This document shows, piece after piece, positions 2,886 to 11,473 of a stretch of 64,000 nt of DNA. The translations under genes and the position numbers were made by a program. Source of the stretch: a virus; the IMG/VR virus record IMGVR_UViG_3300032285_001177, one strand, 5' to 3'. Under the pieces are notes generated by a model. The model was not told the origin of the DNA and did no database searches. It worked only from the letters and a program-made list of their open reading frames with translations. Every line of letters begins with the position of its first letter. The first letter of the stretch is position 1.

Positions 2886-2998
2886 ATTATACCCGAAAGT
2901 GCATTTAATGTACATAGGGCCCCCTAAAATAAATACAAAATAAAAAAGCTATATAAATCATAGACTTATATAGCTTAGGGTATTGCAAGTTATTGATT
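2886..2998 (-). promoter_or_regulatory. Early promoter with paired IHF-like sites
   Basis: TGTACA-N17-TATAAT at 2886-2914; WATCAANNNNTTR matches at 2986-2998 (exact) and 2956-2968 (one mismatch, opposite orientation). Confidence 0.7.
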
Positions 2999-3006
2999 AT
3001 ATTAGA

Positions 3007-5019
3007 CTATTTGGAGGTAGCCCTATATACGCCGTCCCATTCAGGGGGTAGGCCCTCCCGGATGCGCTCCAGCATCTTTTCATAGTAGTCACTAATGGTT
3101 ACATCGTCCCCCAGTGCCAAGAGCTCCTGGAGCCACCCCTCAGCTCTGGACCAGTTTCCTCTATAATACTCTTTGAGGAACTCATCATGCATATAACCCT
3201 GAGTCTTGCCAATCGTATACACCTTCACACCCTGAGTCTTTCCTTTAACCGCTATAGTATCCATCTCAACTACTGGGTATGTGTCTTTGACGAGCTCTGC
3301 TGTGCGTTGACCAAGGACGATTCGAACTCCATAATTCTTTGATTGGCCTTCAAGACGGCTTGCGAGGTTGACTGAGTCACCGAGGCAGGTATAGTCAAAA
3401 CGCTGCTCACTGCCCATATTACCCACAACGACGACCCCGGTATTAACACCCAGGCCCATACCAAAAGGAGGAATACCTTCTTTAGTAATCTCTTCATTGA
3501 ATCTATCCAAGTCATCTAACATCTCCAATCCTGTTTTAACTGCATTGATAGCATGATCTTTGTCATCCAATGGTGCATTCCAAAAAGCCATCTGCGCATC
3601 ACCGATGTACTTATCAAGTGTACCGTTGTTGTCTATGATCTTACGAGTCATAGCTGTCATGTAACGGTTCATAATCTTAGTTAGACCTTGTACATCTGCT
3701 CCATAGTGTTCAGAGATGGTAGTAAAGCCACGAACGTCTGTAAACATTATGCTTAGCTCGCGACTATCACCACCAAGTTGTAGCAGATCTGGGTTCTTTT
3801 GTAACTTCTCAACCATTGCTGGTGATAGGTATGTCCCAAATTGTTTCTTTATCCTAAGCTTTGCGTTAAGCTCGGTGATAAATTTGACAGTATAGGCATG
3901 AGCGTATACCACAGAAAGGATAATAATAGGGAAGAGAACATCAATAAGATAGCCGTAGTGAGTGAATATCGCGCTACCCACACTATAAAGACCGCCCAAA
4001 ATACCAAGAATAAGAATAATTCCATACTTCCACCTTGTTAATAAGATTAATACGATTGATAAGATGATGGTCGCAAGTACTTCTGCACCATCTGCCCAAT
4101 CAGGTCGCGATATGACTGTGCCTGATGTGAGTGTGTCTAGAACGTTCGCTTGAACGTAATGAGGAAAGAGTCCACCTCGAGGGGTTGCAACTGGGTTGTT
4201 GAGCCCACGGGCTGTGAGGCCAACGATGACGATACCTCCATCAAACGATTTGGGGAGGTCCACAAGAGAGTGTTGAATTGGACTCGCGCTCCAGTCAATC
4301 CAGATACGACCGATACTGTCGGTTTGGATCTTGGCGAATTTAGGGATGCGAACAGCTTCGATTCCTCTATCGGAAGATTTAACTTGGAAACTTGGGTCTC
4401 CGACTGCGACACGCAAAGTTTCGAGAGTAATACTTGGGTAGAGCAAGCCTCCGCTTGATACGACCATAGGGATACGGCGAGTAACACCATCAATTTCGGG
4501 TAAGACATTTACGACTCCTATTCCAGCAGCGCTGTTGTTAAATAATGATATATTAGGTTGGATACCAGGATAATCTACAGTGAAGTCATGTGCTGGTGAT
4601 CCGATCTCACTGACTCCAGGTCTAAATGCAAGTGCTTTTTGTTTCTGATCTGTTGCTACCTGAGGTAAGACGACAGGGTGTCTAGCAAGACTATCAGCCA
4701 AGTTGGCATCGCGTCCAAAGCGATCAGTGTCAGGCATAAAAAGATTAAAAACAACAAGACCAGCATTGCGTTGGTAAAGGTCCTCGATAATGTTTGCATA
4801 TTGGCTCCTTGGAAATGGAAATTGACCAAGTCTTTCAATTGATGCATCATCGATGTTTACGACATGGACTTGTTTAGATTGTACTACGGGTTTACTTGTA
4901 ATCAGTGTATCAAAGTATCTTAACCTAACTGACTGTACAAATGATGGATCAGTTGCTCTAACTCCTATTAATAAGGCTAAAGTTAATAGAGCAAACCATG
5001 GTGATAATAGTCTTTTCAT
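3007..5019 (-). CDS. CHASE2-domain membrane class III adenylate cyclase
   Basis: N-terminal TM; CHASE2 motifs (VNIDDASI..GQFPFPR, DGVTRR); three TMs; catalytic domain FTDVRGFT, DKYIGDA (Lys, ATP-type), FDYTCLGDSVNLASRLEG. Confidence 0.93.
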   Translation of the reverse strand: MKRLLSPWFALLTLALLIGVRATDPSFVQSVRLRYFDTLITSKPVVQSKQVHVVNIDDASIERLGQFPFPRSQYANIIEDLYQRNAGLVVFNLFMPDTDRFGRDANLADSLARHPVVLPQVATDQKQKALAFRPGVSEIGSPAHDFTVDYPGIQPNISLFNNSAAGIGVVNVLPEIDGVTRRIPMVVSSGGLLYPSITLETLRVAVGDPSFQVKSSDRGIEAVRIPKFAKIQTDSIGRIWIDWSASPIQHSLVDLPKSFDGGIVIVGLTARGLNNPVATPRGGLFPHYVQANVLDTLTSGTVISRPDWADGAEVLATIILSIVLILLTRWKYGIILILGILGGLYSVGSAIFTHYGYLIDVLFPIIILSVVYAHAYTVKFITELNAKLRIKKQFGTYLSPAMVEKLQKNPDLLQLGGDSRELSIMFTDVRGFTTISEHYGADVQGLTKIMNRYMTAMTRKIIDNNGTLDKYIGDAQMAFWNAPLDDKDHAINAVKTGLEMLDDLDRFNEEITKEGIPPFGMGLGVNTGVVVVGNMGSEQRFDYTCLGDSVNLASRLEGQSKNYGVRIVLGQRTAELVKDTYPVVEMDTIAVKGKTQGVKVYTIGKTQGYMHDEFLKEYYRGNWSRAEGWLQELLALGDDVTISDYYEKMLERIREGLPPEWDGVYRATSK

Positions 5020-5147
5020 TGGATAACTTGTGTCTTCTTATGTTGTAAACTTTTCTTTAGTGATTTAAGCCAAAGCTTCTTTTGTTTCTTTTTTTGATGT
5101 CTAACGCATGCTAGATACATCTTACGAATTAATTTTTTAACTTTCAT
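5016..5147 (-). CDS. Small highly basic peptide (43 aa)
   Basis: MKVKKLIRKMYLACVRHQKKKQKKLWLKSLKKSLQHKKTQVIQ; ATGA overlaps with both neighbours. Confidence 0.6.
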   Translation of the reverse strand: MKVKKLIRKMYLACVRHQKKKQKKLWLKSLKKSLQHKKTQVIQ

Positions 5148-5890
5148 TTTATCTTGTTCCAGTAAATTATCTTCCACTCACCCTCGTGAGTCTCGACCAA
5201 TGCTGAGCATGATTCTACCCAGTCCCCGTCATTCATATAGATAATATCACGTATTACTTTGATCTCAGGAGTATGTATATGACCACATATAACTCCATCA
5301 TAACCTTTCTTTTCACAGTAATCGGTTATGGTCTCTTCAAACTTAAACACAAAGCCTACAGCTTTCTTAACGTTTCGTTTAAGGAAACGGCTTAGTGACC
5401 AATAACTAAATCCTAATCTATGTCTTATATAGTTAAACTTAGTGTTTACCCATAATACAAAGTCATAGGCATGATCACCTAATACAGAGATCCACTTTGC
5501 CATACGAGTGATACCATCAAACATATCACCATGTGTTATAAGGAACCTACGACCATTCAAGTCTGTATACTCAGCTTGGTTACATAAGACTATGTTCTTA
5601 CCAAGCGAGAAGTAATTTACGAATGGTCTAAGGAACTCATCATGGTTTCCAGTAACATAAACAACCCTAGTCCCGCGTTTACTAAACCCTAAGATCTTAC
5701 GTATAACATTGGTATGGCTTTGCTTCCATCTCCATTTGTTTAGATGGATCTTCCAACCATCAATGATGTCACCTATAAGGAATAGGTTCTCACAATCGTT
5801 ATGCTTAAGGAAATTATTAAGCAGATCAGCCTTAGCTTCACCAGCCCCCAAGTGTGTATCTGATATACAAATGGTCTTATACTTTTTCAT
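5144..5890 (-). CDS. Calcineurin-like metallophosphoesterase, LpxH2/PlcP-like
   Basis: SDTHLG, GDIIDGW, GNHDE, HGD, CGHIH and NDGDWVES motifs. Confidence 0.85.
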   Translation of the reverse strand: MKKYKTICISDTHLGAGEAKADLLNNFLKHNDCENLFLIGDIIDGWKIHLNKWRWKQSHTNVIRKILGFSKRGTRVVYVTGNHDEFLRPFVNYFSLGKNIVLCNQAEYTDLNGRRFLITHGDMFDGITRMAKWISVLGDHAYDFVLWVNTKFNYIRHRLGFSYWSLSRFLKRNVKKAVGFVFKFEETITDYCEKKGYDGVICGHIHTPEIKVIRDIIYMNDGDWVESCSALVETHEGEWKIIYWNKIK

Positions 5891-5918
5891 TATATCCCAA
5901 TATTCAATTAAAGTAAAA

Positions 5919-6575
5919 TTAATTAATCTCTATAGCTGGGAATTCGCTCTTGTCAAATGCATGCGTTTCAATATATGCAGCTTCAGCTTCTTTACCTATC
6001 CATGGAGTTCCTGGTGGCAGATCTAATACTGTACGAGATACATCAATGATGAATATTAAACGCTTCTCATTTGTATTATTCCATGCGCTATGTAGCTTTT
6101 GGTTGTCAAAAGCAAATATATCATCCCATGTTACCTCTTCACTATCTACTTCAAACCCAATATCTCCTTCAGGTACTAATAGTGGAATGTGTATACGAAC
6201 CATCTTAGCTTCACGGTTTTCTATACCTGAATGTCTACGTATAACAGAGTTAGCATCAAACACGGCATAAGATGCACAGTTACAATCATCTCCATACTTT
6301 TCTACCAAAGCTGCAGCTGTTGGGAATTTAATCTTGGCTGCTTGACCTGCTAGTACAGCTGCAGCTTTAATCTCGTCAGATGATCCATCAAACTCATACT
6401 TAACACAATAGTTTACCCAACTGTCAGGTCTTGGATATTGGTTTCCGATATAGGTGTATCCACCTTCACCTTCATAGTTTGGATGCGCTGCAAAGAACTC
6501 ATCCTTTAATGCTTGTTGTATAGACTTAAGCTCATCGTATATCTTAAGTTCTCTTCCACGCCAAATGTTTTGCAT
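5919..6575 (-). CDS. Aspartyl/asparaginyl beta-hydroxylase-family 2OG-Fe(II) oxygenase
   Basis: IRRHSG...RIHIPL...FDNQKLHSAWN..RLIFIID. Confidence 0.8.
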   Translation of the reverse strand: MQNIWRGRELKIYDELKSIQQALKDEFFAAHPNYEGEGGYTYIGNQYPRPDSWVNYCVKYEFDGSSDEIKAAAVLAGQAAKIKFPTAAALVEKYGDDCNCASYAVFDANSVIRRHSGIENREAKMVRIHIPLLVPEGDIGFEVDSEEVTWDDIFAFDNQKLHSAWNNTNEKRLIFIIDVSRTVLDLPPGTPWIGKEAEAAYIETHAFDKSEFPAIEIN

Positions 6576-6576
6576 A

Positions 6577-7644
6577 TTAATTGCCCCTCTGATTAATCGT
6601 TATAGTATTCGTAGTGCTATCCTTTGACTGCACCGTTGTAGATGATCCGCCTTGATTAATATTTATTAGATATCCAGTGTCTTTATTTATTAATATCGTG
6701 GCATTTTGATTGTTCTTTGGCCTATTAACTACATAGTGAGATGTCTTATCGAATATGTAAGTTCCAGTCAATGCATTGTATCCGGTTTGGAATGCTGTTA
6801 GTAGTTGGTTATCAAACGCATTAGTTAGGTTCTCTCCATCGAGAAAGTTGATGTCTAGTTCTGCAAAGTCTTTGTACGGATCTTTATATACTTTAGCATC
6901 TAATAGGTTTGTATCCAGCCCATTAAAATCCAATGAAGATCCAGACTTATCTTTGATCTCTTCTGTAATCTGCTTAAGCACTTCTTTTGGAGGCTTAACG
7001 ATAAGCATGTTATCGATAGCTGACTCTGATAATAACAATGTTACTGGTTTGGATGGTTTAACTTCTGAGGATGAAGTAGTTGTAGCTTGGAATGCTTGGT
7101 TGAGTGTTACTGTACCGACTGCGGTGATGACATCGATCATGCCAACTGATCCGTCTTTGTTGGGAAGTAAGATGATGAGTGACTTTCCCACCTCGTCAAC
7201 CGTCATAGTAAAAGCAGTACCACGTACAGCCACAGTTGCGGTAGGTGTATTGATAGCCACATTTTTATTGTTCTCATGAGCGATATTACCTGATGCATAT
7301 CGTACTGTGCCCATAGCTACCTTAAGAGCTAGCTTACCAGCACCCTTATTTTTTGGATCATAGACGAAGTCATCTATGAGTAGTTTTGAATTCTCGGTTA
7401 CACGAACCTGTGTGTTGTCTTCAAAAGTAATACCGACCACACCTGCACCGGTCTGTACTAAATCATTTGAATCTATAGGGGATTTGGGTTTGGCATCCAC
7501 CGACGCCTTATTGTGCGTGATGGATGCATTCCCTTTTTGCTCAGTTACTGAACCAATTGCTGCTTGACTAGTGTTGTGTAACAGTAATAGCAGAGTTAGA
7601 ACCAGTAAGGTTGATAACCGCGCTATTTGCAATTGTGTTGCCAT
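6577..7644 (-). CDS. Exported FecR-domain protein
   Basis: Signal peptide, then IG.V...ITFEDNTQVRVTENSKLLIDDF...INTPTATVAVRGTAF (FecR domain). The signal peptide overlaps the curlin-like gene. Confidence 0.85.
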   Translation of the reverse strand: MATQLQIARLSTLLVLTLLLLLHNTSQAAIGSVTEQKGNASITHNKASVDAKPKSPIDSNDLVQTGAGVVGITFEDNTQVRVTENSKLLIDDFVYDPKNKGAGKLALKVAMGTVRYASGNIAHENNKNVAINTPTATVAVRGTAFTMTVDEVGKSLIILLPNKDGSVGMIDVITAVGTVTLNQAFQATTTSSSEVKPSKPVTLLLSESAIDNMLIVKPPKEVLKQITEEIKDKSGSSLDFNGLDTNLLDAKVYKDPYKDFAELDINFLDGENLTNAFDNQLLTAFQTGYNALTGTYIFDKTSHYVVNRPKNNQNATILINKDTGYLININQGGSSTTVQSKDSTTNTITINQRGN

Positions 7645-8263
7645 CTTGACTCACAGTGATATTATTATTATCGCCAATTACATTAGTATTGATATTATGA
7701 CCACCACCAGCTAGTGTACCAAAACCAGTTTGTGTAGTAATCACTTTATTTAGATCACCGGCTAAACTAAAGTTATTAGTGGTATAAGCACTGTTAACTG
7801 TGCTTGTAACAGTATTAGTGTCACCAGTTATGTCTAAGTTATAAATGTAATTACTTGAGTTACGTAATGTACCGATGTTTAAGATAGAACTGTTGTTCGA
7901 ACCATTGAATGTGATACCCAATGAACCAGAACTTGTACCAAAGTTACCATAGTTTAATAATGTAGAGTTGCTGTTACCAATTTGACTAATAGTAGCTGTT
8001 GAGTTACCACCAATAAAATTACCTAAGATGCTGTTGTTCATACCATCTTGTGTAATAGTCAAGAACATACTGTTACCATCAATTACAAATGGATCACCTG
8101 TTGTAGTGTTTGCACTTCCAACGTTGTTGTTAGAACCAGTTTGCGTAATAGTTACAGCTGATTGATCAGCATTTGTCTGATCTATATAGACTGAGTTGCC
8201 TCCGTCTGCCAATGCACTGCCTGCCAATAATAAACCCATCACGAGAGTGGTGGATCTTTTCAT
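7568..8263 (-). CDS. Curlin-like (CsgA/CsgB-like) secreted repeat protein
   Basis: Signal peptide; Asn/Gly/Thr/Ser-rich with repeats ITQTGSNN, ITQDGMNN, ISQIGNSN, VSQDG; next to csgG and csgF. Confidence 0.75.
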   Translation of the reverse strand: MKRSTTLVMGLLLAGSALADGGNSVYIDQTNADQSAVTITQTGSNNNVGSANTTTGDPFVIDGNSMFLTITQDGMNNSILGNFIGGNSTATISQIGNSNSTLLNYGNFGTSSGSLGITFNGSNNSSILNIGTLRNSSNYIYNLDITGDTNTVTSTVNSAYTTNNFSLAGDLNKVITTQTGFGTLAGGGHNINTNVIGDNNNITVSQDGNTIANSAVINLTGSNSAITVTQH

Positions 8264-8265
8264 TG

Positions 8266-9033
8266 TTATTTCTCCTGTTTAAACTGCCACATTCCTTGTT
8301 TTTCACCTTGAATAATTAACTCTTCCACTGCCCTATCTGTAGCAGACTTGATAGCGTGGATACTTGCTTCAGTTTGTGATATACCAATCTCAGACTCAAA
8401 GTTTTTAGTGCCATTATCAAAGAACTTAAATACTGCAACACCTATCGTATAGCTTAATATAGTTTTCTGAGTATTCACTGTTAATAATACTTCACCCGTT
8501 TGTGTACTAATAGCACGAATGCTGATAGTCACTACGTCTTCCTGATACTGTTGATCAGGACCGATCCCGAGATATCGAACTCCAATACCACCTGTTCGTA
8601 TATTGGTGTCATAAGAAACTATGCCACCTTCAATCATCATGCCCGCATAGAGTATAGGACCAAGACCTTTATGATCATTTGCCTCTTCTCTTGCAGATCG
8701 AATTAGTTGTCTTTCTTTAAGTAGGTTATCAAGACCTACACGTTCTACGATCCTAAACCACTTACCATCACCAGCTTCTTGTAATGATTTGATTAATACT
8801 GTCTCGCCGCCTTGGGTTACAGCAGTTGAGAACTTAGCTATATTACCTGAATCTTTTCTTTGTCCAGTCTTATCACCAAACCCATATAGTGCAACTACGA
8901 TCTTACCATCCTTTGGTGGCGGGATGTGTTTCTTAACCTTAACTTCAGGTATAAGTTCTGCATCCTTCTTGATAGGGATCGGTCCGCATCCTGTCAAGAA
9001 AACACATAACAAAACTAACAGTAACTTTTTCAT
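8266..9033 (-). CDS. csgG: Curli secretion channel CsgG-like lipoprotein
   Basis: Lipobox FLTGC; YGFGDKTGQRK, FSTAVTQG, WFRIVERVGLDNLLKERQLIR, EGGIVSYD. Confidence 0.93.
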   Translation of the reverse strand: MKKLLLVLLCVFLTGCGPIPIKKDAELIPEVKVKKHIPPPKDGKIVVALYGFGDKTGQRKDSGNIAKFSTAVTQGGETVLIKSLQEAGDGKWFRIVERVGLDNLLKERQLIRSAREEANDHKGLGPILYAGMMIEGGIVSYDTNIRTGGIGVRYLGIGPDQQYQEDVVTISIRAISTQTGEVLLTVNTQKTILSYTIGVAVFKFFDNGTKNFESEIGISQTEASIHAIKSATDRAVEELIIQGEKQGMWQFKQEK

Positions 9034-9473
9034 TAGAATTTTAATGTTCCGATTGGTATATCTACTTGAGTTACAGTGCCATCTGCAGCCGTAACCGTTA
9101 ATGATATAGAGTCAGCATTCTTAACATATACTATGGTGTTACCTTCAATGGTAACGGTACCACTGTTCTGTGGATTCTCACCAAAAAGGTTATTGATTAA
9201 TTGTGTAGATAGTTGAGCATAGACTCTGCTCTCAAAGTTGTTAAGGAACTTAGCTAGGTTTGTATTTTTAGCTGCGGCGGCCGCGTCCTTTGCTGCTTGT
9301 AGCTTCGCGTCTTCTATTGCTTTCTTACGCGTGCTCTCTGTGTTCTCGATCGTTTGTACGTGAGAACTATATCCTATCCCGTTGAAGGATGGAGACTTAA
9401 ACTGATACGTAAGCTCCGCATGGGCGCTACTTGTCGTTATCAGTAAAAATATTAGGCTTCTTGTGAACTTCAT
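9033..9473 (-). CDS. csgF: Curli assembly factor CsgF-like
   Basis: Signal peptide then ELTYQFKSPSFNG (CsgF N-terminal F.NPSFGG-like motif); adjacent to csgG. Confidence 0.85.
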   Translation of the reverse strand: MKFTRSLIFLLITTSSAHAELTYQFKSPSFNGIGYSSHVQTIENTESTRKKAIEDAKLQAAKDAAAAAKNTNLAKFLNNFESRVYAQLSTQLINNLFGENPQNSGTVTIEGNTIVYVKNADSISLTVTAADGTVTQVDIPIGTLKF

Positions 9474-9711
9474 CTTGTTCCTTGTCTCTTAGAGATAAAA
9501 TGACGTTCACTTTTTGATTAAGTCTAATAAGATCGTTATCTAACATCCTAACACGATCGATCAGTTCAATCAATACCTTATTTGATTCACCTATTACAGG
9601 GTCGATTTCCTCAGTTACCCACTTCCAAATATAGTAGACGAAGTACCCTAATCCGCCTGCTGCTATAATGGGAAACCCATACTTATTAACTAAATCTGCA
9701 AACTCTTCCAT
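9427..9711 (-). CDS. Small membrane protein (one TM plus coiled coil), paralogue of 9860..10138
   Basis: MEEFADLVNKYGFPIIAAGGLGYFVYY...LDNDLIRL; shares GFPI.AAG..GYFV and D.IR with its paralogue. Confidence 0.75.
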   Translation of the reverse strand: MEEFADLVNKYGFPIIAAGGLGYFVYYIWKWVTEEIDPVIGESNKVLIELIDRVRMLDNDLIRLNQKVNVILSLRDKEQDEVHKKPNIFTDNDK

Positions 9712-9860
9712 TATTCTTCCGTTGGTAGTGGATCTATAACCCAACATCTTAGTTGTCCACCAATAATCATACAGTTTGGTGGTACATGTATTCTCTTCTT
9801 ACGTGGTTGTTCAGCGTATGCTATGCCACTAATCAATAATAGTATGATTAATAGTCTCAT
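9711..9860 (-). CDS. Small secreted peptide (49 aa) with two cysteines
   Basis: MRLLIILLLISGIAYA|EQPRKKRIHVPPNCMIIGGQLRCWVIDPLPTEE; TAATG coupling at both ends; absent from the ORF track. Confidence 0.65.
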   Translation of the reverse strand: MRLLIILLLISGIAYAEQPRKKRIHVPPNCMIIGGQLRCWVIDPLPTEE

Positions 9861-10138
9861 TAATCTCTTCTTGCATCTGATTGCTCAGCTCTTGCAATCC
9901 TATCTAGATCAGGTGGGATGCCTAATGCATGACTTACTTTTGTATCAATACGGATAACATCATGGTTCATGGCTGCTACACGTCTATCCAAAGCTTTGAT
10001 AATATTTGACATGCCCTTTACAGATCCAGTAACACCATCGAGGATGAACTTAACTGTAAGGAACACAAAGTAACCTGCCGCACCAGCTGCAGCAATTGGA
10101 AACCCTAAATCGGCAACTAGTTTTAGTATATCTCCCAT
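9860..10138 (-). CDS. Small membrane protein, first gene of the curli-like operon
   Basis: GFPIAAAGAAGYFVF TM segment followed by a coiled coil. Confidence 0.75.
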   Translation of the reverse strand: MGDILKLVADLGFPIAAAGAAGYFVFLTVKFILDGVTGSVKGMSNIIKALDRRVAAMNHDVIRIDTKVSHALGIPPDLDRIARAEQSDARRD

Positions 10139-10143
10139 ATACC

Positions 10144-10151
10144 TATTTATA
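10144..10151 (-). promoter_or_regulatory. T4-type late promoter heading the curli-like operon
   Basis: Exact TATAAATA 5 nt upstream of the ATG at 10138. Confidence 0.7.
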
Positions 10152-10174: not shown

Positions 10175-11473
10175 CTACTTATCTTTTTTTACAAACCCAA
10201 CACCTCTATTTGTTATAGATTCTTGGGCTCTTAGTTCTCTTGTTTTTAACATATCAACTTTACGTACAACAGGGTCAGCATCATACTTTTCATTTAATCT
10301 ATCTATTGAATTCAAAGGCTTATGATTAAGTTCTTCAACCTCATCTTCAATAGTTTTAGATGGACTATTGTATTCATTGATGTTTATACCTAAAGATGGT
10401 TCTTCAGGTGGAGGGGGTGGCGGTGTTGGTATTACTTCTTCATAATGGTCACCGTCATTACCATTCTGTCCGATTATATCAGTTCTTATATCATCCTTAG
10501 GCCATTCAACCTGAGCGGGTTCTTCGGGTCTTGGATCAAAGTCTTCTGTAGCTAAAAGAGTATCATCCCAATTTGCCCACGGATTCTCACTCTTTGGTTG
10601 CCATACTTGTTCCCATCCGTCTGGTGTCCTTCCAGCTAAAGCATCTGCATAACCTTTAACTACTTCTGGATCATTTTCTTTTTCTACTATTGGTTCAATA
10701 GGCTTTCTTTTTTTTAGAGACCAGTTAACTGCGACTAACATAAGAACTGCAAGAGGATCAAATACTGCTACGATCATGAGGATAACAATCCTGACCGCCT
10801 TCTCTAAAAGAGTTTGGTCAAGACTGTCACCATATATCAATGCTGCAATATATTTTATTGGCCCGACTTCGGCTTCGACTTTCCTGAGTTGACTTGCCAC
10901 TGGTTGCCTTTCTTCATTGAGCTTCGCGATCTTTGTCTGCGAGGCTTCGATTGTGGCGTAGAGGGATTTGCGTTCTTTGGATTGGCCTTTTCTGATCGAT
11001 ATTGATCTAGAGACACCACTGTCGTCGGTGGCTCCGGCTGTACGTGACAAGGTTTGGTCAACTTGCGAATCCAGTTGAGAAAGAGATTTACGAGCTTCAT
11101 TAATTGTTTCCTTTTCTGTCTTGAGTTTCTCATCTATTAGTGATAGTTTTGATGAGACATCTCCAGTTGGGACTGCTTGATCTAAGTGTGCCTTAGATAA
11201 GAATCCAAATATGCCCATCGATGTGAGCGTCATAAGAATGATTAGTGCTGAGGTAAAATATATCTTGAATAGTCTTGGAACCTCCTTCCAGTTTCTATAT
11301 AGCCATGATGCTACCACTAACTTAGACACTTCTAAGATAGATCCCATCACCATGATAGGGATTGCTGCCGCAGCAAAGATTGCTACCAAACCTGCGATAG
11401 AATAGAACGCAGCGATGCAACTCAGCGAGATAGCTGAGACAAACATTACACTGGTCATTACTTTATCGTTCAT
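10175..11473 (-). CDS. Multi-pass membrane protein with coiled coil and acidic Pro-rich tail
   Basis: Three N-terminal TMs, long coiled coil, VFDPLAV TM segment. Confidence 0.7.
   Translation of the reverse strand: MNDKVMTSVMFVSAISLSCIAAFYSIAGLVAIFAAAAIPIMVMGSILEVSKLVVASWLYRNWKEVPRLFKIYFTSALIILMTLTSMGIFGFLSKAHLDQAVPTGDVSSKLSLIDEKLKTEKETINEARKSLSQLDSQVDQTLSRTAGATDDSGVSRSISIRKGQSKERKSLYATIEASQTKIAKLNEERQPVASQLRKVEAEVGPIKYIAALIYGDSLDQTLLEKAVRIVILMIVAVFDPLAVLMLVAVNWSLKKRKPIEPIVEKENDPEVVKGYADALAGRTPDGWEQVWQPKSENPWANWDDTLLATEDFDPRPEEPAQVEWPKDDIRTDIIGQNGNDGDHYEEVIPTPPPPPPEEPSLGININEYNSPSKTIEDEVEELNHKPLNSIDRLNEKYDADPVVRKVDMLKTRELRAQESITNRGVGFVKKDK

Follow-up and report, generated by a model that had tools for sequence, protein, structure and literature searches.

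CsgG and CsgF together form the curli channel. Wittmers et al. (2022, PMC9599517) have described a viral type VIII secretion system (T8SS) region in podo- and myovirus pelagiphages, which comprises one or two genes named 'HK' (histidine kinase), CsgF, CsgG, CsgA/B, FecR, often a second CsgA/B, and an adenylate cyclase (AC). They reported that FecR, AC and HK lie outside bacterial T8SS operons, and that all four viral T8SS proteins that could be placed in trees group nearest to alphaproteobacterial versions. The viral genes are expressed in metatranscriptomes, FecR and AC were called 'putatively regulatory', and the module was found at all 65 GOV2.0 ocean stations, where it made up about 0.1% of assembled viral proteins (PMC9599517). 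Two papers on the phage 'curli operon' (Zaragoza-Solas et al. 2020, PMC7029224; PMC9004378) mention neither FecR nor the cyclase. Here, we analyzed a block of this kind in a stretch of viral DNA of 64,000 nucleotides (IMG/VR record IMGVR_UViG_3300032285_001177; hereafter, the window), in which curli secretion genes are followed by genes for a FecR-domain protein and for a membrane adenylate cyclase with a CHASE2 sensor domain.

The window belongs to a T4-like phage, whose family-B DNA polymerase shares 52% identity with cyanomyophage gp43. The block consists of 11 co-oriented genes on the minus strand, running from position 10138 to position 3007, and neighbouring genes either overlap or are separated by no more than 28 nt. 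We consider it almost certain that the block belongs to the viral type VIII secretion (curli) module already published for T4-like phages of the HTVC008M/Melnitz type. HTVC008M and Melnitz are the nearest cultured phages for the block, and their annotated order is two small proteins, CsgF, CsgG, curlin, FecR, a second curlin-repeat protein and the cyclase. The genes and order in HTVC008M (KC465899, 7181–13807) and Melnitz (MZ577097, 50118–56876) are as in the window, the proteins are 38–56% identical, and the genomic background is likewise T4-like. A preliminary description of the window had implied that the block was novel; this cannot be maintained, because Wittmers et al. (2022) described the same genes. 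What is new in the window is one more copy of the module with lineage-specific cargo. Unlike HTVC008M and Melnitz, the window lineage has no second curlin-repeat gene between FecR and the cyclase, and carries a hydroxylase gene, a gene for an LpxH-like phosphoesterase and a 53-amino-acid (aa) open reading frame (ORF) instead. An extra 49-aa Cys peptide also distinguishes it from the module of the two cultured phages.

The preliminary description had proposed that linkage of the FecR and cyclase genes to csgFG be checked in related genomes, and had named a lack of linkage as a refutation of its reading; the survey did not bear out such a lack. We fetched 80 IMG/VR phage loci via CsgG and mapped the window proteins onto each of them. 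The FecR gene was present in all loci in which csgG is followed by 2.5 kb or more of sequence (60/60), the cyclase gene was present in all those in which it is followed by 8 kb or more (40/40), and the same linkage holds in HTVC008M and Melnitz. It is kept down to 46% identity of CsgG and 36% identity of the cyclase. The linkage of the block is tight and ancient. The FecR gene always directly follows the curlin gene and is not always next to the cyclase gene. In 12 of 44 loci, the stop codon of FecR overlaps the start of the cyclase by 4 nt, and the three intervening genes of the window therefore represent an insertion at a hot spot, as the preliminary description had assumed when it called them inserted. 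In HTVC008M, the 'hypothetical' gene at this position (L002:7639–8964) encodes a PA14 domain (E = 2.7e-6) and four curlin repeats. Judged from these domains, its product would be a carbohydrate-binding adhesin head on a curlin anchor.

The csgF, csgG and curlin-repeat genes are adjacent in that order. CsgF (9033..9473, minus strand) carries a signal peptide and matches Pfam PF10614 (E = 4.6e-17) over profile positions 5–132 of 132; its predicted mature N-terminus is ELTYQFKSPSFNG. CsgG (8266..9033, minus strand), the lipoprotein of the outer-membrane curli channel, matches PF03783 (E = 7e-54), has the lipobox LTGC, and is 44–47% identical to CsgG of HTVC008M and Melnitz. The third gene (7568..8263, minus strand) encodes a secreted protein of 231 aa, with a signal peptide that was read from the translation and six repeat stretches matching PF07012 (Curlin_rpt, E = 2.7e-6). 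This protein is a candidate fibre subunit and may form amyloid fibres. CsgE, CsgC and CsgD were absent from a Pfam scan that covered all eleven block genes, which agrees with the alphaproteobacterial and viral curli modules.

The FecR-domain protein (6577..7644, minus strand) is exported and was identified by Pfam (FecR, E = 5.9e-9), by AlphaFold2 (AF2) models and by fold matches to the structures 6ovk and 5ix9. In the AF2 models, a signal peptide is followed by a FecR beta domain (residues 31–200), an acidic linker of about 75 aa that is predicted to be disordered (predicted local distance difference test, pLDDT, <50), and a C-terminal beta domain. Residues 58–217 match the cell-surface-signalling domain of PupR (6ovk; Z 15.8, 136 residues aligned). 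Residues 27–122 superpose on RIN of the RTX adhesin MpIBP (5ix9; Z 10.6, root-mean-square deviation 2.2 Å, 73/76 residues, 27% identity). A FecR-family profile gave no match against PDB sequences; the likeness came from fold comparison alone. The authors of the RIN structure state that this periplasmic domain exceeds the pore size of TolC, so that the adhesin stays attached to the cell (PMC5550230). The retention module of RTX adhesins (MpIBP RIN, LapA-type) thus has a fold like that of the N-terminal half of the phage FecR domain, and in both proteins an N-terminal folded domain is followed by a long extended region. However, the phage protein has no RTX repeats (no HemolysinCabind match) and no type I secretion signal; it has a Sec signal peptide, and the adjoining channel is CsgG rather than TolC. 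We infer from this analogy that the phage FecR protein may have a plugging or retention role.

The last ~70 aa of the FecR protein (6580–6807, minus strand) form a compact beta domain of seven strands, with a pLDDT of 92 in a model of the last 76 aa. A G, an R and the terminal Q are invariant in this domain, and the tail motif I-x-I-x-Q is conserved, which we do not count as evidence. We also considered whether the tail is a curlin-like strand that joins the fibre or threads through CsgG, and rejected this, since the tail is a compact domain of its own, does not match Pfam Curlin_rpt and gave no CsgA-like hit. The FecR/PupR-type anti-sigma regulators share the periplasmic FecR fold with the phage protein; however, the latter has only a signal peptide before its FecR domain, and lacks their cytoplasmic anti-sigma domain, transmembrane (TM) anchor and partners. 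The Pfam scan detected no extracytoplasmic function (ECF) sigma factor and no TonB-dependent transducer among the block genes.

The membrane adenylate cyclase (3007..5019, minus strand) was identified by Pfam matches to CHASE2 (PF05226, E = 3e-40, residues 13–325) and Guanylate_cyc (E = 2e-21) and by alignment with PDB structures. Its layout, in which the TM segments were recognized as hydrophobic stretches of the sequence, is a TM segment, a periplasmic CHASE2 domain, three TM segments, a class IIIb catalytic domain and a helical C-terminal extension. It is 38% identical to the cyclases of Melnitz and HTVC008M. The metal-binding residues D428 and D474, the substrate-specifying residues K470 and T544 (ATP-type), and the transition-state residues N551 and R555 are all intact. 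From the letters and translations, the preliminary description had recognized a CHASE2 class III cyclase whose catalytic motifs are intact, along with CsgF, CsgG, a curlin-repeat protein and a FecR domain; Pfam has now confirmed each of these families, and the catalytic residues are as it stated. CHASE2 is a widespread sensor domain for which, to our knowledge, no signal or ligand has been identified so far. The cyclases of L016, L057, L064, L069 and L082 form a second subtype within the module, with a Lys/Asp substrate pair in place of Lys/Thr and with Ser in place of the transition-state Asn (VSTAARIE). The activity or product of this subtype may differ.

We then asked where the two parts of the module occur in bacteria. 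When the FecR protein was searched against a protein database, the top 120 matches were all phage-like relatives from metagenomes; therefore, the bacterial context was taken from genome scans. Most of the 80 bacterial CHASE2 cyclases closest to the phage protein are alphaproteobacterial; the 80 share 30–37% identity with it over the full length, including the C-terminal extension. A FecR-domain gene lies within 10 kb of the cyclase in about 33 of these 80 loci. None of the 80 loci contains CsgG, CsgF, curlin or the small membrane proteins, and CsgG was found nowhere in the five of these genomes that were scanned. Conversely, CsgG proteins 41–47% identical to phage CsgG were found in 7 of 401 sampled alphaproteobacterial genomes, in loci that also have CsgF and curlins; no FecR, cyclase or small membrane protein gene lies within about 10 kb of any of the seven. 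These alphaproteobacterial curli operons share the CsgF-CsgG-curlin order of the phage module and, like it, have no csgC, csgD or csgE; unlike it, they have no FecR, cyclase or small membrane proteins. Within the samples examined, the union of curli genes with a FecR-cyclase pair is confined to phages.

Pairs of FecR and CHASE2 genes have been noted before in Burkholderia (BiofilmReg) and as PA4035-36 (PMC5192318), and smc02177 of S. meliloti adjoins cyaD1 (PMC5498481). As in the phage, the gene for a periplasmic protein with the FecR fold adjoins that for a CHASE2 membrane sensor. However, the bacterial pairs never stood beside csgG in our samples, and the bacterial FecR domain often shares a protein with LysM or with giant repeats like those of RTX adhesins, whereas the phage FecR protein has its own C-terminal domain of 70 aa. 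The bacterial FecR neighbours are often giant proteins, in which an N-terminal FecR domain is followed by cadherin-like, Big_9, VWA or NIDO domains and by RTX repeats. By their predicted domains, these giant proteins share the architecture of type I-secreted adhesins. Examples beside CHASE2 cyclases come from Bradyrhizobium, Methylobacterium, Roseobacter and a marine single-cell genome (L083:5383–9933, L092:6027–9707, L113:5571–9803 and L106:18064–21009). Together with the neighbouring cyclases, they are candidate adhesin-coupled cyclic AMP (cAMP) sensors.

FecR-fold domains mediate periplasmic protein contacts. We suggest that the phage module may consist of two coupled halves, a fibre exporter and a sensor pair. 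The exporter would be a minimal one of the alphaproteobacterial type, with the lipoprotein channel CsgG, CsgF and one secreted curlin-repeat subunit. The sensor pair, which may have been taken from bacteria, would combine a FecR-fold protein exported by Sec with a cAMP-making membrane cyclase that carries CHASE2. Like its homologue, the retention domain of RTX adhesins, the folded FecR domain would remain periplasmic, and it could report the state of the secretion channel, the fibre or the envelope to CHASE2; the cyclase would then raise cAMP, which would act on host receptors. As a whole, that is, for the module identity together with the two coupled halves, we regard this as the best explanation, at a little less than even odds; the coupled-sensor mechanism by itself is advanced somewhat more tentatively. 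The preliminary description had placed the components in the outer membrane, periplasm, inner membrane and cytoplasm, and our predictions place them in the same compartments. Its reading of the block as a trans-envelope signalling system draws support from the linkage, from these predicted compartments and from the recurrent bacterial FecR-CHASE2 pair, so that a trans-envelope sensor appears plausible; its further suggestion of a control of lysis timing gained no support. In the phage version, a fibre exporter is cut down to few genes and joined to a FecR-CHASE2 pair, and with Melnitz and HTVC008M as cultured carriers it offers a compact system for testing how CHASE2 sensors are fed.

Several observations weigh against this account. 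Among the 44 loci, the cyclase lies on the opposite strand in four, and in the loci with neither overlap nor inversion 0.3–3.5 kb of cargo separates the FecR and cyclase genes; therefore, co-translation of FecR and the cyclase is not required. The transition-state Asn of the cyclase is replaced by Ser in some lineages. We found no cyclic nucleotide monophosphate (cNMP)-binding domain (PF00027) in five related phage genomes, two of which are complete, and any cAMP must therefore be read by the host. The C-terminal domain of the FecR protein has no PDB relative by Foldseek or VIA-align (best Z 3.9), and it has no counterpart in the bacterial loci searched, being found in phage proteins only. A weak profile-profile match was obtained between the FecR tail and phage curlins (hhalign P 0.008). 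Finally, the contacts of FecR with CHASE2, and of FecR with CsgG or the curlin-repeat protein, are ones that we infer. The tolerance of the FecR-cyclase junction for cargo and inversions also speaks for two independent functions that were co-inherited. Curli fibres on the infected cell would then serve aggregation, 'sibling capture' or as a superinfection barrier, roles proposed in PMC7029224 and PMC9599517, and the FecR-cyclase pair would act separately, responding to a periplasmic cue of its own and generating cAMP to manipulate the host. The bacterial scans fit this view, since with FecR or cyclase at 0/7 curli loci, and CsgG at 0/80 cyclase loci and in 0/5 genomes, each half is self-sufficient in cells. 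However, the linkage has no exception across phage lineages with protein identities as low as 36–46%, it is the curlin gene and not the cyclase gene that the FecR gene always adjoins, and clumping was not seen in cultures with Melnitz (PMC9004378). We regard two independent functions as the main alternative, somewhat less probable than the coupled sensor.

Two further explanations assign the block another role. The CsgG or CsgGF pore might be a lysis-timing device, that is, an analogue of a gated secretin or of a pinholin, whose timing is set by the cyclase and the two small membrane proteins. This was proposed for Melnitz (PMC9004378) and would suit both the placement of the block behind a late promoter and the presence of two single-pass membrane proteins of holin-like size. 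However, a 1-nm outer-membrane channel leaves the inner membrane polarised, a conserved CsgF and a complete substrate, the curlin-repeat protein, would be superfluous for a pore-only role, and our data do not tie the block to an endolysin; we consider a lysis device improbable. The name FecR and a suggestion in PMC9599517 point to an import channel for iron or cofactors, with FecR as a regulator of the iron-citrate type. This seems very improbable indeed, since the phage protein is a signal peptide with a periplasmic fold, with no anti-sigma domain or TM anchor, and neither an ECF sigma factor nor a TonB-dependent transducer is among the block genes scanned. Returning to the coupled exporter and sensor, a more general version would extend to bacteria. 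FecR/RIN-type domains might be stationed where an outer-membrane export channel opens into the periplasm, at TolC in the case of RTX adhesins and at CsgG in that of the phage fibre. From there, they would signal to CHASE2 whether a fibre or adhesin on the surface is in place, carries a load or is being pulled, and the phage would in this way convert late-infection cues (contact, aggregation or envelope damage) into cAMP. We put this forward as a long shot; if it is true, CHASE2 would gain a protein input.

The two small membrane proteins at the start of the block were described from the translations as paralogous, and this was borne out because both match phrog_18771. Protein A (9860..10138, minus strand; 92 aa; E = 9e-35) has an N-terminal TM segment and a helical tail; protein B (9427..9711, minus strand; E = 2e-34) has 94 aa from a TAATG-coupled start. 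They correspond to the 'HK' of Wittmers et al. and have one TM segment each. We rejected the histidine kinase identity, since proteins of 92 and 94 aa have no HisKA or HATPase_c domain and matched nothing in Pfam even at E = 10. Their nearest atlas clusters are unnamed and virus-only. Their genes are linked to csgF in nearly all loci mapped. In L033, L035, L037 and L064–L067, both have been relocated past the cyclase gene and onto the other strand, yet they are still within the block. Between them, the window encodes a protein of 49 aa (9711..9860, minus strand), in whose translation a signal peptide and two Cys were read. The preliminary description had counted this secreted Cys peptide as a component of the system; its secretion signal and cysteines stand, whereas its place in the system does not, because a tblastn match was found in only one of the 80 related loci (L011). 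It is a variable insert and not a conserved part of the module.

Three genes separate FecR from the cyclase in the window, all on the minus strand. The first encodes a protein of the 2-oxoglutarate (2OG)/Fe Asp/Asn beta-hydroxylase family (5919..6575; Pfam Asp_Arg_Hydrox), which is weakly LpxO/OlsC-like; a hydroxylase at this junction is specific to the window and was found in none of the 80 loci. The second encodes an LpxH-like metallophosphoesterase (5144..5890; Pfam Metallophos). The third is a very basic ORF of 53 aa (5016..5177), read from the translation, which overlaps both of its neighbours and whose place immediately before the cyclase gene is conserved in several lineages. The LpxH-like phosphoesterase directly adjoins the cyclase in L006, L034, L060, L071 and L022, often together with the 53-aa basic ORF, and the cyclases there are only 36% identical to that of the window. 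The region 5144–6575 thus shows a weak likeness to lipid A enzymes: the hydroxylase resembles LpxO/OlsC (E = 9e-8), and the phosphoesterase resembles LpxH over its full length (NCBIfam E = 4e-13, PDB E = 3e-5), with the LpxO/OlsC and LpxH scores both under the curated cut-offs. The two enzymes may be envelope-remodelling cargo. The possibility that the phosphoesterase is a cAMP phosphodiesterase was rejected, since its full-length matches were to LpxH structures and models only, and neither CpdA nor an Rv0805-type protein was matched at thresholds up to E = 10.

The preliminary description had seen a co-oriented and mostly coupled run behind a late promoter. In agreement with this, the 11 minus-strand genes lie between an exact copy of the T4-type late-promoter consensus, TATAAATA (10144..10151, minus strand; 6 nt 5′ of the first ATG), and a hairpin of 14 bp followed by a T-run (2946..2976, minus strand), which lies 3′ of the cyclase stop codon and is the likely terminator of the unit. 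The window contains eight copies of TATAAATA, a number equal to the chance expectation; all eight are on the gene strand, and most of them sit directly upstream of ORF starts. We read the gene block as being transcribed late as a single unit. Nearly all long ORFs of the window are on the minus strand, and its guanine and cytosine (GC) content is 39%. Just upstream of the block (10175–11473, minus strand), a protein of 432 aa is encoded, with TM segments at its N-terminus, a coiled coil and an acidic tail rich in proline; its position is kept in part of the lineage, where it is 55–78% identical.

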